Assembly: GCA_964505555.1 (NCBI GenBank)
Contig: CAZDIO010000102.1
Span: forward strand, 13,355 to 77,354
Length of the DNA stretch: 64,000 bases
Reading direction: 5' to 3'
Source of the DNA: an uncultured Bdellovibrionales bacterium
GTDB taxonomy: Bacteria > Bdellovibrionota_C > UBA2361 > SZUA-149 > CAZDIO01
Both the position numbers and the translations under genes were made by a program. Shown piece after piece: positions 43,782-54,457 of the stretch. Every line of letters begins with the position of its first letter. Position 1 is the stretch's first letter. The notes below the pieces were generated by a model. That model ran no database searches. It was not told the DNA's origin and saw nothing but the letters and a program-made list of their open reading frames with translations.

Positions 43782-43869
43782 TGAACACAGAGTTTCACAG
43801 AGATCCACAGAGTAAAGAAAAAAGCTTTTAGATTTAACTCTGTGTAACCCTGTGAAACTCTGTGTTCAA
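43782..43869. repeat. A-type palindromic element, copy A2 (left arm diverged)
   Basis: tgaacacagagtttcacagagatccacagagt ... actctgtgtaaccctgtgaaactctgtgttcaa. Confidence 0.85.
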
Positions 43870-43929
43870 ACCTACTAAATGAAACGACGCTAGTTGAAAC
43901 CACCTCTATTTGACCCATATAAACCCTAG

Positions 43930-43956
43930 GGAACTTAAGCTTTAAATCATCGATAA
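43930..43956 (+). promoter_or_regulatory. Weak sigma-28-like promoter candidate upstream of the glycine-zipper gene
   Basis: GGAA-N15-ATCGATAA against the consensus TAAA-N15-GCCGATAA. A competing sigma-70-like TTGAAA-N17-ATATAA lies at 43894-43922. Both are weak. Confidence 0.2.
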
Positions 43957-44020
43957 AGATTATGAGGGCAATTCGTCTCTCATCACTATTACGAAATAGA
44001 CTTCAAATAGGGAGGCCATC

Positions 44021-45376
44021 ATGATCGTTACTGATTCACCATTTCGCACGCAATATAGCGCCAATAACGTTGCAATTCGAAACGGAGCAACAAGTACTAC
44101 GCCGGCGCAATTTAGTAATCTTTCTTTTCTTCGATCGACACCACCTTCTTTACCTTCAAGCAATCTCCTTGCCCCATCAAGTAGCGGAGGATTTGTTTCT
44201 CAAGTGCAGTCGATGCTGCAGCAAGTTTCGGTGCTGATGGATCTCATCGGTGCCGCAAGACAATCAGATCAAAGTGCTGGGGTTAGTCTCCTCGATGGGG
44301 CGAAACTCTTTTCTCAAAATGTTTCTCAGGAGCTTTTTAACCTTCAGACAAGAGGAGGTATCGGAGGGGTTTTTGATGCTGTTCCGACCTCTATAGATAG
44401 TCTTGGTACTGCCGCTCAACAGTACGTTCTTGGGAACCTCAAGCGAGAGTTTTTTGACGCAGTTGGTGAGGCGTTTGGGGTGGATGTTTCACAGCTTTCT
44501 GTAACAGATCTTGCCAATTTGGCTTATGAAAGCGTTTTTGGAGAGGGAACATCGCTCTCTAGTACCCTCTCAGATGGGGTGGCAGGAATCTTCTCCGGTC
44601 AGGATCCCTTTGTAGCAGGAGAACTTAGTGGAGAAATTGGTGGAGAAATAAGCACTGAAGTAGGCGGGGCAACTTCAGGAATTGGCCAATTTACAGGCGC
44701 TTTAGCAACCGCGTATTCTCTCTATGGAATAATTAATGACTGGGGAAAGAGCACCCCAGCCATGGGTGCGATGCGAGGTGCTACGGCTGGAGCGTACATC
44801 GGGAGTATTATTCCAGGAGTTGGAACTCTTATCGGAGGTGCCATCGGTGGGGTTGCGGGGGCGATCTCTGGATTGTTTCATAGTGGGAAGCATAAAAACC
44901 AGATTCAACGCGATCAGGTTCGAGAGTTTTTAAGAAATGCCCAAATTATCGATTCAGATAACTCCCTTCAGTTAGCAAATGGTGAACGTTTTGATATCGG
45001 AAAAGATGGAGGTGCTCGCTATCTTGGACTTGACGGAGTTGAGAGACGACCCTACGTGACTGACCCTTCAAATCCACTTACCGCTGAGGCGATAGGGCTT
45101 GTAAATCCGTTAGCAATAATTCTCACCGGAGGTGATCCTGGACTTTCTTCAGCTTTTGCAGGGTATTTTAGTAATGCCATCGTCAGTAACGCACAAGATC
45201 TCGAAGGCGTCCGCCAAAATGCCTTGGCGATATTCTCAAAATTTCAGGTTACCCCAGAGCAATTGATCGCTGGCTTAGAAAATCTTACTGCCTCCGGCAA
45301 AATCCCCCCAGAAGATTTTGCTGCATACGCAAACGGGGTAAGAACTCTCCTTGAAGGGTTTTCTTCACCTTCATAA
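44021..45376 (+). CDS. Glycine-zipper-containing protein of unknown function; candidate secreted pore-former/effector
   Basis: 451 aa. The N-terminus is Ser/Thr/Pro-rich with no hydrophobic signal (SPFRTQYSANNVAIRNGATSTTPAQFSNLSFLRSTPPSLPSS). The central segment GAMRGATAGAYIGSIIPGVGTLIGGAIGGVAGAISGLF is a GxxxG ladder. SD gggagg. Confidence 0.6.
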   Translation: MIVTDSPFRTQYSANNVAIRNGATSTTPAQFSNLSFLRSTPPSLPSSNLLAPSSSGGFVSQVQSMLQQVSVLMDLIGAARQSDQSAGVSLLDGAKLFSQNVSQELFNLQTRGGIGGVFDAVPTSIDSLGTAAQQYVLGNLKREFFDAVGEAFGVDVSQLSVTDLANLAYESVFGEGTSLSSTLSDGVAGIFSGQDPFVAGELSGEIGGEISTEVGGATSGIGQFTGALATAYSLYGIINDWGKSTPAMGAMRGATAGAYIGSIIPGVGTLIGGAIGGVAGAISGLFHSGKHKNQIQRDQVREFLRNAQIIDSDNSLQLANGERFDIGKDGGARYLGLDGVERRPYVTDPSNPLTAEAIGLVNPLAIILTGGDPGLSSAFAGYFSNAIVSNAQDLEGVRQNALAIFSKFQVTPEQLIAGLENLTASGKIPPEDFAAYANGVRTLLEGFSSPS

Positions 45377-45390
45377 GAAGCGTTAGATTA

Positions 45391-45479
45391 TTGAACACAG
45401 AGTTTCACAGGGTTACACAGAGTTTGAACTATCTTACTTATCCCACACTCTGTGTAACCCTGTGAAACTCTGTGTTCAA
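45391..45479. repeat. A-type palindromic element, copy A3 (loop inverted relative to A4)
   Basis: Perfect 33-bp arms with loop ttgaactatcttacttatcccac. It starts 15 nt after the upstream stop. Confidence 0.9.
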
Positions 45480-45546
45480 CCTTCCTTTTTTGCTCAAAAA
45501 GTTTAAAAACATCTTTACTGCTATATCGAATAGTGATATTAATCTA

Positions 45547-45708
45547 GTGGTGATTCGATCGTACAAAAACATTGGCACACGTGATATTGCTGAGAATTCG
45601 AAAGCAGCGCGGCGACTGTTGCCGCAACCATTTAATGCTCAGTATCGCATTTGCTTTCTTTGGAATGGCATTGATGCTGACGCAGTTGAAATAGTGGATT
45701 ATCACTGA
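45547..45708 (+). pseudogene. higB: HigB-like (RelE/ParE superfamily) toxin remnant with an apparent internal deletion
   Basis: The ends match HigB (VIRSYKNIGTRDIAENSKAA... and ...YRICFLWNGIDADAVEIVDYH), but only ~53 codons remain against roughly 90 in the family members I recall, so the central part is missing. The track's GTG start at 45472 lies inside repeat A3 and is unlikely to be real. Confidence 0.45.
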
Positions 45709-52507: not shown

Positions 52508-52528
52508 TCTTAGCGCGCTGTATGGGAG

Positions 52529-53146
52529 GTGAAAATGAATATATCTTATAGAAAAATCTCTCTTCATCATTTAGCACTCTGGAGTTTTGTCTGTTTCATT
52601 CTTTTCTTGAGTACTGGCTGTATTTACCGAAATAAAAATAGCCTTACGGCTCATGAAGCCGTAACTCGGGAAACAAAGATGAAGTCACTCCTTGCTTTTA
52701 GTGTTTCACAGCTTCGAATCGGAGATGAAGTGGCACTTGATCGCGCCTATGCAACGCTTGAGCTTGCACGAGAGTTAGACCCAAACGATGCACGAGTGTT
52801 TGATGGTTTAGGAAGTGTGGAATGGCGTCGCGAAGGGTATAAGTTAGCGGAGTTCTACTTTAAAAAAGCGGTATCTCTTGATCCTAACTATTCTCGTCCG
52901 TATGCACATCTTTCGCTTGTTGCAGAAAGAAATGGTGATTATCAGGCAGCAAAAGAGCTCCTTCTAAAATCTCTTGAACTTAATCCTCTTAATTACCGGG
53001 CAAGAAACAACTACGCCGCCCTTCTTGTTCGTTACGGAAATCAAACAAGTAATGAACAAACGGCGTACTATGAGTTTCTAAAAGTTGCCCGAGGTGCTTC
53101 AAAAGAAGATCCCGTTCTTCAGTATAATCTAGGTCGGTTTGAGTAG
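52529..53146 (+). CDS. TPR-repeat lipoprotein (last gene of the T3SS operon)
   Basis: Lipobox LSTGC after a hydrophobic leader. Three to four TPR-like repeats follow (AYATLELARELDPNDARVFDGLG..., AEFYFKKAVSLDPNYSRPYAHL..., AKELLLKSLELNPLNYRARNNYA). SD gggaggtg. Confidence 0.7.
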   Translation: MKMNISYRKISLHHLALWSFVCFILFLSTGCIYRNKNSLTAHEAVTRETKMKSLLAFSVSQLRIGDEVALDRAYATLELARELDPNDARVFDGLGSVEWRREGYKLAEFYFKKAVSLDPNYSRPYAHLSLVAERNGDYQAAKELLLKSLELNPLNYRARNNYAALLVRYGNQTSNEQTAYYEFLKVARGASKEDPVLQYNLGRFE

Positions 53147-53183
53147 GCGTTATCCGTAGTCGCAGGAGGAACCTGATTTTTAA

Positions 53184-53271
53184 TTGAACACAGAGTTTCA
53201 CAGGGTTACACAGAGTAAAGAGAAGAGATTTTAAATTTAACTCTGTGTAACCCTGTGAAACTCTGTGTTCA
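53184..53271. repeat. A-type palindromic element, copy A5
   Basis: Canonical arms with loop aaagagaagagattttaaatttaa, 38 nt after the TPR lipoprotein stop. Confidence 0.9.
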
Positions 53272-53353
53272 TACCAGAAGCTAAATGGACCTACTCTAGC
53301 CTTACAATTCAAAACTTGCTAAGTATTCATTGGAAATCCCTCTTCGGATATTT

Positions 53354-54337
53354 ATGCAAGATCCTCAATCAACGATAAATGTTTCTTCAATAGATTACTC
53401 GCCAACGGTAGGGATAGTAATTATCAATTATAACTGCGCTCCTTATACGCTAGACTGCCTGCGCACAGTAGAGAAGCTTTCCTATACAAATTATTTTGTA
53501 GTGATCATTGATAACAACTCCCCAGATCTCTCCGGCTACTACTTACAACAAGCGCTCAAAGATAAGCGGGTAACCGTCATTATCAACCCTGAAAACTGTG
53601 GCTTCGGGGCAGGAAACAATATCGGTATTCGTCATGCGTTAGAAGGGGAGGCAGAGTATATCTGGCTTTTAAATGCAGATACCTTTGTTCATCCTGAGGC
53701 ACTCTCCCAACTTGTAAAACAAGCAAACGAATATCCTGAGGTTGGAGCGTTTGGAAGTAAGGTTCTGTATGAGGAAGAACCTTTGTCTCCTAAAAAAGAA
53801 GAGGGAAAACCGATAATATGGAGTGCTGGAGCCTCGATAGATTTTTCTAAAGAAGAAGTAAAGATGTTTGGTTCCCATGAAGAAGATCGAGGGCAGCACG
53901 ATCAGCTCCGCGAGTGCGAATACATTCCCGGATGCTCACTTTTCTTTCCTGCAAAGGTGATCTCAGAAGTTGGCTACCTGCCGGAAGAATACTTTATGTA
54001 TTTTGAAGAAACAGAGTGGTGTACGAGGATGAGAAAAAAGCATTTCAAACTGCTCTATGTTCCAGAAAGTGTAGTTTGGCACCGGTTTCAAGATAACAAA
54101 ATGCAAACCCCTTTTGGAGTGTATTATTACAACAGAAATAATCGTTACTTCTGGTTTCGTCAGGGAGATATCTTTAAAAAAATCGCGATGATTGTGCGAA
54201 CACTTTTTAAAGACCTTCCCCGTGCACAGAGAGCGTTTAAAAAAGCCCCCGATGAAGCTTCTCGCGAAATCTTCTCTGCTCACCGAGCTAGCTGTCTTGA
54301 TTTTCTTTTTGGGAGGTTTGGGAAGAGACGGTATTGA
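53354..54337 (+). CDS. Glycosyltransferase family 2 (rhamnosyltransferase-like)
   Basis: Blocks VGIVIINYNCAPYTLDCL, VIIDNNSPD, GFGAGNNIG and NADTFV. I prefer ATG 53354 to the track's TTG 53330. Confidence 0.8.
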   Translation: MQDPQSTINVSSIDYSPTVGIVIINYNCAPYTLDCLRTVEKLSYTNYFVVIIDNNSPDLSGYYLQQALKDKRVTVIINPENCGFGAGNNIGIRHALEGEAEYIWLLNADTFVHPEALSQLVKQANEYPEVGAFGSKVLYEEEPLSPKKEEGKPIIWSAGASIDFSKEEVKMFGSHEEDRGQHDQLRECEYIPGCSLFFPAKVISEVGYLPEEYFMYFEETEWCTRMRKKHFKLLYVPESVVWHRFQDNKMQTPFGVYYYNRNNRYFWFRQGDIFKKIAMIVRTLFKDLPRAQRAFKKAPDEASREIFSAHRASCLDFLFGRFGKRRY

Positions 54338-54379
54338 GTTAAATATTGATATGTTAAATGTTTGCGAGTGTTTTTAGGA

Positions 54380-54457
54380 TGAACACAGAGTTCAACAGAG
54401 GAAAGAAAACAAACCAATAATTTTAACTCTGTGAAACCCTGTGAAACTCTGTGTTCA
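54380..54457. repeat. A-type palindromic element, copy A6 (left arm degenerate)
   Basis: tgaacacagagttcaacagagg ... ctctgtgaaaccctgtgaaactctgtgttca, between convergent genes. Confidence 0.8.

Follow-up and report, generated by a model that had tools for sequence, protein, structure and literature searches.

Heptad-array palindromes in gene 3'-end spacers of an uncultured Bdellovibrionales contig

The stretch of DNA analysed here (the window) comprises 64 kb of genome from a metagenome-assembled contig, CAZDIO010000102.1, of an uncultured Bdellovibrionales bacterium, and it contains six copies of a palindrome, designated A type, whose arms are arrays of CACAG(A/G)G heptads. The A type is a new lineage-specific member of a known, uncharacterised class of CACAGAG-unit intergenic repeats. 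Pfam scans of approximately 60 open reading frames (ORFs) provided the gene map. From left to right, a glycan cluster (1-27 kb) is followed by genes for UbiD, flagellin, an SLT lytic transglycosylase, OsmC, a CopG/nucleotidyltransferase pair and Icd; the middle part encodes a RepA-type initiator and, beyond a 900-nt gap, ParA-ParB, a polyprenyl synthase, hemD, hemB, a 451-aa protein and higBA; and the right part encodes a sigma factor, SctJ, FliN_C, FHIPEP, a TPR protein, a GT2 glycosyltransferase, a PIG-V-like mannosyltransferase, an Rce1-like protease, Pgl and SerA. No transposase, integrase, Y1 gene or REP-associated tyrosine transposase (RAYT; REP, repetitive extragenic palindromic) was found among these ORFs, and the RAYT/TnpA(REP)-like or other recombinase that an earlier note on this DNA had suggested looking for is thus not among them.

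The 33-nt arm TTGAACACAGAGTTTCACAGGGTTACACAGAGT had nine matches in the window at no more than three mismatches, with zero expected from 100 dinucleotide-preserving shuffles, and the six copies listed in the earlier note are therefore real. An inverted-repeat scan recovered four complete copies, A2 to A5 (Table 1), with arms that are 89-100% complementary around an AT-rich centre of 17-24 nt. Each full arm is a run of CACAGAG, CACAGGG and CACAGAG, with a step of exactly 10 nt from one heptad start to the next. The description of perfect arms around an AT-rich loop holds for A3 and A4; A1 and A6 have unequal arms, the left arm of A2 carries four substitutions, and A5 has a single mismatch. The inventory of six was also incomplete for the heptad as a whole, as two further palindromes, B1 and B2, contain it at a different spacing. 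All eight heptad palindromes are pairs of inverted arrays with 17-40 nt between the arms. A relaxed half-arm search of the window yielded zero additional A relics. The elements are non-coding, and no ORF is associated with them.

Aligning the six A copies separated two subfamilies that have unrelated loops and different outer flanks. Subfamily I (A1, A2, A5 and A6) has a loop of the form AAAGA...TTTA and a T-rich left flank, the right flank containing CTAAATG in A2 and A5; subfamily II (A3 and A4) has its own loop type and the common flanks AGCKTWNGATTA and CCTTCCYTTTTTGC. The A4 loop is the reverse complement of the A3 loop (four differences in 24), and the outer flanks of 12 and 14 nt are in direct orientation. 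The inverted A4 loop, together with the unequal numbers of units per arm in A1, A6 and B2, is as expected of a dynamic palindromic repeat. Among A3, A4 and A5, the arms differ at only 0-1 of 66 positions, whereas loops of the same subfamily differ at 4 of 23 and 4 of 24; the probability of one arm difference or fewer at the loop rate is ~5e-5. Because the arms are near-identical while the loops diverge, it is the arm sequence that is kept, by selection or by conversion, beyond what mere pairing demands.

All eight heptad palindromes come after a plus-strand stop codon, at distances of 15-243 nt, and none occupies a purely 5' spacer. Taking the start of the element minus the stop coordinate, the distances are 33 nt for A1, 15 for A3, 117 for A4, 38 for A5 and 43 for A6, in agreement with the 15-120 nt given previously; A2, already described as following a different palindrome (D, core at 43593-43641), starts 243 nt past the hemB stop with D in between. 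Of the 17 spacers that reach 130 nt or more and include a gene 3' end, 10 hold an A, B or C palindrome (C being another type, described below), as against none of the 10 divergent spacers, several of which measure 190-900 nt. No sizeable 3' spacer from 43.5 to 54.5 kb is without a palindrome, and it is this that creates the impression of delimited modules. The glycan-synthesis cluster, which is the most accessory-looking part of the window, has zero palindromes, and A1, B1 and B2 adjoin ordinary genes.

Table 1. Palindromic elements and selected genes of the 64-kb window
Feature	Position	Strand	Description	Context
A1	33064-33126		Subfamily I; left arm three heptads, right arm one	Between convergent OsmC-like (+) and CopG-like antitoxin (-) genes
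A2	43782-43869		Subfamily I; left arm with four substitutions (GAGATCC for GGGTTAC)	Past D palindrome, upstream of 451-aa glycine-zipper-like gene
A3	45391-45479		Subfamily II; perfect 33-nt arms; outer flanks common with A4 span 45379-45493	After glycine-zipper-like gene
A4	46143-46232		Subfamily II; perfect arms	Between higA and sigma gene, 250 nt upstream of the latter
A5	53184-53272		Subfamily I; one terminal mismatch	In 183-nt spacer between TPR chaperone-like gene and GT2
A6	54380-54458		Subfamily I; left arm two heptads, right arm three	Between convergent GT2 (+) and PIG-V-like mannosyltransferase (-) genes
B1	29229-29327		Arms CACAGAG / CACAGAG / CGCAGAG, 8-nt spacing	44 nt after UbiD-like gene
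B2	63092-63210		Same heptad at 8-nt spacing; three units left, four right	22 nt after 507-aa ORF
C type	29349-29432
C type	56130-56236
C type	59757-59783		Solo half
D	43560-43670		Long, imperfect; core of 17-nt perfect arms 43593-43641; single copy in window	Between hemB and A2
451-aa gene	44021-45376	+	No counterpart in six related loci	Between A2 and A3
higB remnant and intact higA	45544-46026	+		Between A3 and A4
Operon of sigma-70-family factor, SctJ, FliN_C, FHIPEP (SctV/FlhA), TPR	46483-53146	+		Between A4 and A5
GT2 glycosyltransferase	53330-54337	+		Between A5 and A6
Flagellin gene	30396-31259
CopG-like antitoxin and DUF6036 nucleotidyltransferase	33172-33882	-	Toxin-antitoxin-like pair	Directly beside A1
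Plasmid-type module	36658-40814		RepA-family initiator (PF10134), 900-nt ORF-free gap, ParA, ParB
DegT/DnrJ/EryC1 aminotransferase paralogue	2866-3969			Glycan cluster
DegT/DnrJ/EryC1 aminotransferase paralogue	17015-18118			Glycan cluster
DegT/DnrJ/EryC1 aminotransferase paralogue	18826-19965			Glycan cluster

Six loci around FHIPEP relatives (50-57% identity; L117, L118 and L128-L131) were compared with the window by tblastn; two of the six carry the same gene on different contigs. The best FHIPEP (SctV/FlhA) relatives are 55-57% identical, and those that are named belong to Bdellovibrionota or Oligoflexia metagenome-assembled genomes (MAGs). A chlamydial origin of the DNA, which the type III secretion and hem genes might suggest, was rejected on the strength of these SctV/FlhA relatives, none above 57% identity. 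The operon running from the sigma factor to the TPR gene has the same order in all six loci, and GT2 follows TPR in three of them (L117, L118 and L131). Further downstream, L117 retains the mannosyltransferase, Rce1, Pgl and SerA genes and L129 the last three; hemD-hemB lie upstream of the operon in L129. Since relatives keep the operon, GT2 and the genes around them in synteny, A5 and A6 lie inside a conserved backbone, and the enrichment at accessory genes that had been claimed for the palindromes was not borne out, there or in the glycan cluster.

Heptad palindromes are absent from five of the six related loci. In the remaining one, L117, which is the closest long relative, a palindrome of CRCAGAGG units spaced 9-11 nt apart lies directly upstream of the sigma gene, and a second has three ACCACNAAG units per arm at 9-nt spacing; the gap between the TPR and GT2 genes of L117 is occupied by a different palindrome family. 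With the orthologous spacers in relatives either empty or containing other inserts, the palindromes appear to have been gained rather than inherited with the operon. L118 has a PIN toxin-antitoxin pair in the spacer between TPR and GT2 (12536-13227) and ParDE after GT2 (14772-15350). These inserts fill the same two spacers as A5 and A6, and the spacers thus appear to be hot spots for small inserts; judged from the aligned loci, the spacers at these junctions are apparently permissive, collecting small inserts.

Comparison of the locus with its relatives, which the earlier note had advised, left only the 451-aa gene and higBA (A2-A4) without a counterpart in any of the six loci. The 451-aa gene had been called a glycine-zipper gene; the gene stands, and the Pfam match to the domain falls below the gathering threshold (20.9 versus 25 bits). 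The L129 gene at the same position was considered as a homologue and ruled out, the two not being homologous. The HigB toxin gene (window 45472-45708) has lost ~44 internal residues in frame relative to the full-length HigB of L176 and L177, the loci in which such a HigB stands beside the closest HigA homologues. Only higA, together with a promoter/operator-like sequence, remains intact despite the deletion, and the higBA pair reported previously looks like a decaying toxin-antitoxin module. The nearest relatives of HigA are 76-80% identical and come from unrelated organisms, including a Chloroflexi MAG; those of the core proteins are only 50-68% identical. As no core protein has relatives nearly so close, higBA was clearly acquired horizontally.

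A one-genome-per-species scan with the pattern CACAGAG-N3-CACAGRG-N3-CACAGAG gave, among the matches listed, more than 115 stretches from many phyla, including Bacteroidales, Anaerolineales, Parabeggiatoa, Bdellovibrionota, Acidobacteriota and Geobacterales. The spacers are variable in 102 of 128 elements among these listed matches, at least two inverted heptads lie within 120 nt in 70 of the 128, and 96 of the 109 elements that could be assessed are intergenic. Both CA-first and CT-first arrangements of the heptad occur elsewhere. An unbiased 7-mer search of 1.38 Mb of fetched DNA, a sample biased by the way in which it was collected, identified 65 palindromic arrays of the heptad type and only four of any other. 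The metagenome scan with the A arm itself recovered only the elements of other organisms. Clustering of 3585 ORFs from 115 of the cross-phylum loci turned up no commoner neighbour than ABC ATPases. None of 4227 Rfam covariance models gave a match at the gathering score, and the E-value mode returned only sub-threshold miRNA-hairpin look-alikes; a literature word search for the heptad and the C-type motif gave only papers on vertebrate recombination signal sequences or primer sequences.

Overall, the A and B palindromes probably, although by no means certainly, make up a lineage-specific repeat family, short, non-coding and non-autonomous, of the type represented by REPINs (REP doublets forming hairpins) and miniature inverted-repeat transposable elements (MITEs), with arms that would serve as protein-recognition arrays. 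The REP/MITE-type behaviour that had been proposed agrees with what was found: the elements are multi-copy, intergenic and located in 3'-end spacers, with conserved arms and variable loops. The kept unit would be the 33-nt arm, in which the CACAG(A/G)G heptad is arrayed three times, and two inverted arms would enclose an AT-rich spacer free to drift and to invert. Such elements may have spread into intergenic spacers that contain a gene 3' end, and may be tolerated only there. The heptads would most likely form a set of repeated sites to which a trans-acting protein binds; such a protein, perhaps a transposase/recombinase or one of the nucleoid type, would have its gene in another part of the genome, and its binding would explain why the arm sequence is conserved and not pairing alone. 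A read-through copy would fold into a perfect 33-bp hairpin, which might incidentally block a 3' exonuclease or become an RNase III substrate. On this model, the cluster of copies at 43.8-54.5 kb would reflect occupied 3' spacers and not the borders of mobile modules. Copy number, anatomy, the rule of location, the contrast in conservation between arm and loop, the potential to form hairpins, the lack of the elements in orthologous spacers of relatives and the recurrence of the unit elsewhere are observed; we infer mobility, protein binding and any RNA effect of the elements.

Several observations weigh against the REPIN/MITE-type interpretation. No target-site duplication is visible in the flanks of the six A copies, and, with neither such a duplication nor an empty-site comparison, mobility is not demonstrated. 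Single REP units are already short, imperfect palindromes, whereas the A arm is three direct heptads without a hairpin of its own: single arms fold at only -0.5 and -1.9 kcal/mol (z +0.6 and +0.3). The identity of the arms could stem from gene conversion instead of selection. The exact A arm has no match in metagenome contigs, plasmids or phages, and no cognate protein was found in the window or beside the 115 cross-phylum copies. When viral contigs were scanned with three scrambled heptamers in the same 10-nt phase, these were about as frequent as CACAGAG, with 6-13 stretches against 16; the viral matches are all plain tandem repeats and none is palindromic, and the palindromic heptad arrays of bacterial genomes therefore look like a distinct phenomenon, with the reservation that this control for cross-phylum recurrence came from viral contigs, which are a different collection from the bacterial genomes.

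The elements might instead be selected by the host for an RNA function, the 33-bp hairpin acting as an mRNA 3' stabiliser, as an RNase III site that uncouples cistrons, or as a terminator or insulator. This is unlikely, although it fares best among the alternatives. All eight copies follow a plus-strand stop codon and avoid purely 5' spacers, as such a function would have it, and the RNA hairpins predicted for A3-A5 are very stable (-58 to -61 kcal/mol, z of about -12, ranging from -11 to -12.6); predicted DNA hairpins of the full copies reach -37 to -39 kcal/mol. REP and Correia elements affect mRNA decay and RNase III processing, and A3 and A4 have a T6/T5 run 7 nt past the stem. However, selection for structure only would permit compensatory changes, and the arm sequence is identical between copies; relatives run the same operon junctions without palindromes; and an RNA sequence signal tied to one strand is hard to square with the presence elsewhere of CA-first as well as CT-first arrangements. 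The possible terminator role put forward in the earlier note fared poorly: an intrinsic terminator is a short G+C-rich stem with a U tract right behind it, a consensus scan picked up none at the A copies, and T runs are missing after the stems of subfamily I.

Somewhat less likely still is that the palindromes are fixed arrays bound by an IHF/HU-type protein that structures the chromosome or acts as a global regulator, and not mobile DNA at all. The three direct heptads of each A arm lie at one helical turn (10 nt), it is the sequence and not only the pairing that is conserved, and the description of the paired sites of Geobacter metallireducens includes the suggestion by its authors that global regulators bind there (PMC2700814). 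Against this, the phasing varies: the B type has 8 nt, and in L117 the ACCACNAAG palindrome has 9 nt and the CRCAGAGG palindrome 9-11 nt; the copies are scattered in unrelated spacers and absent from most relatives; and no candidate protein was identified.

It is improbable that the palindromes are recombination sites delimiting exchangeable cassettes, comparable to integron attC sites or to the pdif modules of Acinetobacter, with genes inserted and removed by site-specific or homologous recombination. In its favour, the horizontally acquired higBA is bracketed by A3 and A4 with their direct 12-nt and 14-nt flanks and inverted loops, relatives lack a counterpart of the A2-A3 gene, and the replicon bears a plasmid-type RepA-ParAB. 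As in integron arrays, same-strand genes are split by similar palindromes of 60-140 nt, a toxin-antitoxin pair is one of the supposed cassettes, and the ends of the element are of the AAC...GTT form; ATTGAAC and GTTCAAC each match the attC cores RYYYAAC and GTTRRRY at six of seven positions. However, integron arrays have IntI and attI, whereas no integrase domain occurs in any window ORF and no recombinase is encoded in the 64 kb. An attC site is an imperfect palindrome that needs extrahelical bases, whereas the A arms are 97-100% paired and have no bulges. Integron cassettes are independently mobile, but here one supposed cassette is a conserved 6.7-kb operon that, like the GT2 gene after it, is syntenic in relatives lacking the palindromes. 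Homologues of higBA in three other loci, reached through two HigA relatives, lack flanking palindromes of this sort, A1, B1 and B2 stand beside ordinary genes, and in Geobacter bemidjiensis repeats of the same class are described inside the nuo, pdh, hem and aro operons (PMC2996986). The earlier proposal that the palindromes delimit exchangeable modules thus fails for the operon and GT2 (A4-A6), and survives only for higBA, which, to judge by its sequence context, would be a single instance between inverted loops and no pattern.

A broader form of that idea, which we regard as doubtful, would unite the heptad (CAC-N-R-AG) palindromes of Bdellovibrionota, Geobacterales, Bacteroidales, Anaerolineales, Parabeggiatoa, Acidobacteriota and others in one cross-phylum family recognised by a protein, its members serving in the present genome as landing or recombination sites that capture small modules, such as higBA between inverted copies, on a plasmid-type replicon. 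Chance or an assembly artefact is hardly credible: repeats can mislead assemblers, and the proteins of the 81-kb source contig are singletons at 90% identity in the protein collection, but chance would give zero arm matches, loops and flanks vary from copy to copy in the manner of true paralogues, and independent assemblies of the relatives bear out the gene order from A4 through A5 to A6.

Other candidates were set aside. The arm contains GTTTCAC/GTGAAAC half-sites reminiscent of a parS/ParB centromere, but the window has no parS within three mismatches, and the TTT spacer is not conserved in other genomes. The resemblance to DnaA boxes and CRP sites, judged from sequence only, is confined to CACA. 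Helical phasing was not retained as a rule of the family because the spacing is 8-11 nt in the B type and L117. The only Y1-like gene found nearby, at 265-1242 (minus strand) of L128 and directly upstream of the sigma operon, has a product of 325 aa in which a Y1 transposase domain of the IS200-like type was recognised (PF01797, 25.6 bits); it was rejected as the source of a cognate protein because it has no relatives in the 115 cross-phylum loci and no flanking palindromic repeats.

The window has further features of its own. C-type palindromes have the form GTCRTTGCGAGC...GAAGCAATCTC...GCTCGCAAYGAC and are common to the window and the distant relative L117, in which the defining motif GTCRTTGCGAGC occurs in five copies (at 12660-12765 and four other sites); they were not found in the other 174 fetched loci. 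The operon from sigma factor to TPR stands without most other type III secretion genes nearby. The RepA-family initiator of the plasmid-type module is 31-34% identical to plasmid RepA of Planctomycetes. The cumulative GC skew has its minimum at ~38-40 kb, and, because this falls at the RepA/ParAB module, the region is probably the replicon origin; the same replicon still bears the housekeeping-type genes hemB/hemD, icd, ubiD and serA. In the 27-kb glycan cluster, where genes are tightly spaced, there are three DegT/DnrJ/EryC1 aminotransferase paralogues.

The analysis removes a tempting modular reading of this locus, in that the type III secretion-like operon and its neighbours are conserved backbone and not a string of cassettes. 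It also links a repeat listed in a Geobacter supplementary table with the same heptad in a deep-branching Bdellovibrionota-like lineage and with matches in many phyla. If one trans-acting factor reads the heptad, these repeats would be a widespread, unexplored counterpart of the REPIN-RAYT systems, and the cultured G. bemidjiensis would be a tractable model in which to find that factor.

Among known mobile repeats, MITEs and the Neisseria Correia elements resemble the A type in being small, non-coding, multi-copy and intergenic, with long inverted termini (5'-TG...CA-3') and transcribed hairpins; unlike MITEs, the A copies have no target-site duplication, almost the whole element is arm, and no parent insertion sequence is known. 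REPINs consist, in ~89 bp, of two conserved inverted units and a less conserved spacer, with two possible orientations (PMC3337134), and the A type shares this plan, being likewise hairpin-forming, extragenic and multi-copy. In Pseudomonas and Enterobacteria, REPINs are mobilised by RAYT Y1 transposases, the gene for which is single-copy and flanked by the repeats; no RAYT was seen in the approximately 60 ORFs of the 64-kb window.

The likeness to the Geobacter repeats, as far as their published consensus and description go, is more specific. Supplementary file 6 of PMC2996986 lists 68 nonanucleotide repeats in G. bemidjiensis, of the form TTT[WCCTCTGTG R0-1 Y0-1]n GTGAG (Gbem_R9001-R9068); as described there, they occupy ~42 spacers, often two per spacer, and 39 of these spacers contain a 3' end, only three being 5'/5'. 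The arrays adjoin nuo, pdh, hem, aro and other housekeeping genes and lie inside operons. The account of G. metallireducens gives 21 class 2 paired sites on opposite strands, each of three tandem TCTCCGTS[Y] repeats (PMC2700814). In these descriptions, the Geobacter repeats share with the A and B palindromes a unit that is CTCTGTG, i.e., CACAGAG (or CTCCGTG, i.e., CACGGAG), in at least three tandem copies at 8-11 nt, arrays that are often paired on opposite strands at a variable distance, and an intergenic position nearly always beside a gene 3' end amid ordinary genes; dozens of copies were catalogued descriptively, without a function. The tandem unit, the opposite-strand pairing and the 3'-end spacers of this paired-array class were all found in the present case. 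By the same published descriptions, the spacer sequences, loops and flanks differ, and the A type is set apart by the exact 10-nt step between heptads, by 33-nt arms that are perfect and by CACAGGG as the central unit, as well as by its host, a Bdellovibrionota/Oligoflexia-like MAG rather than a Geobacter.

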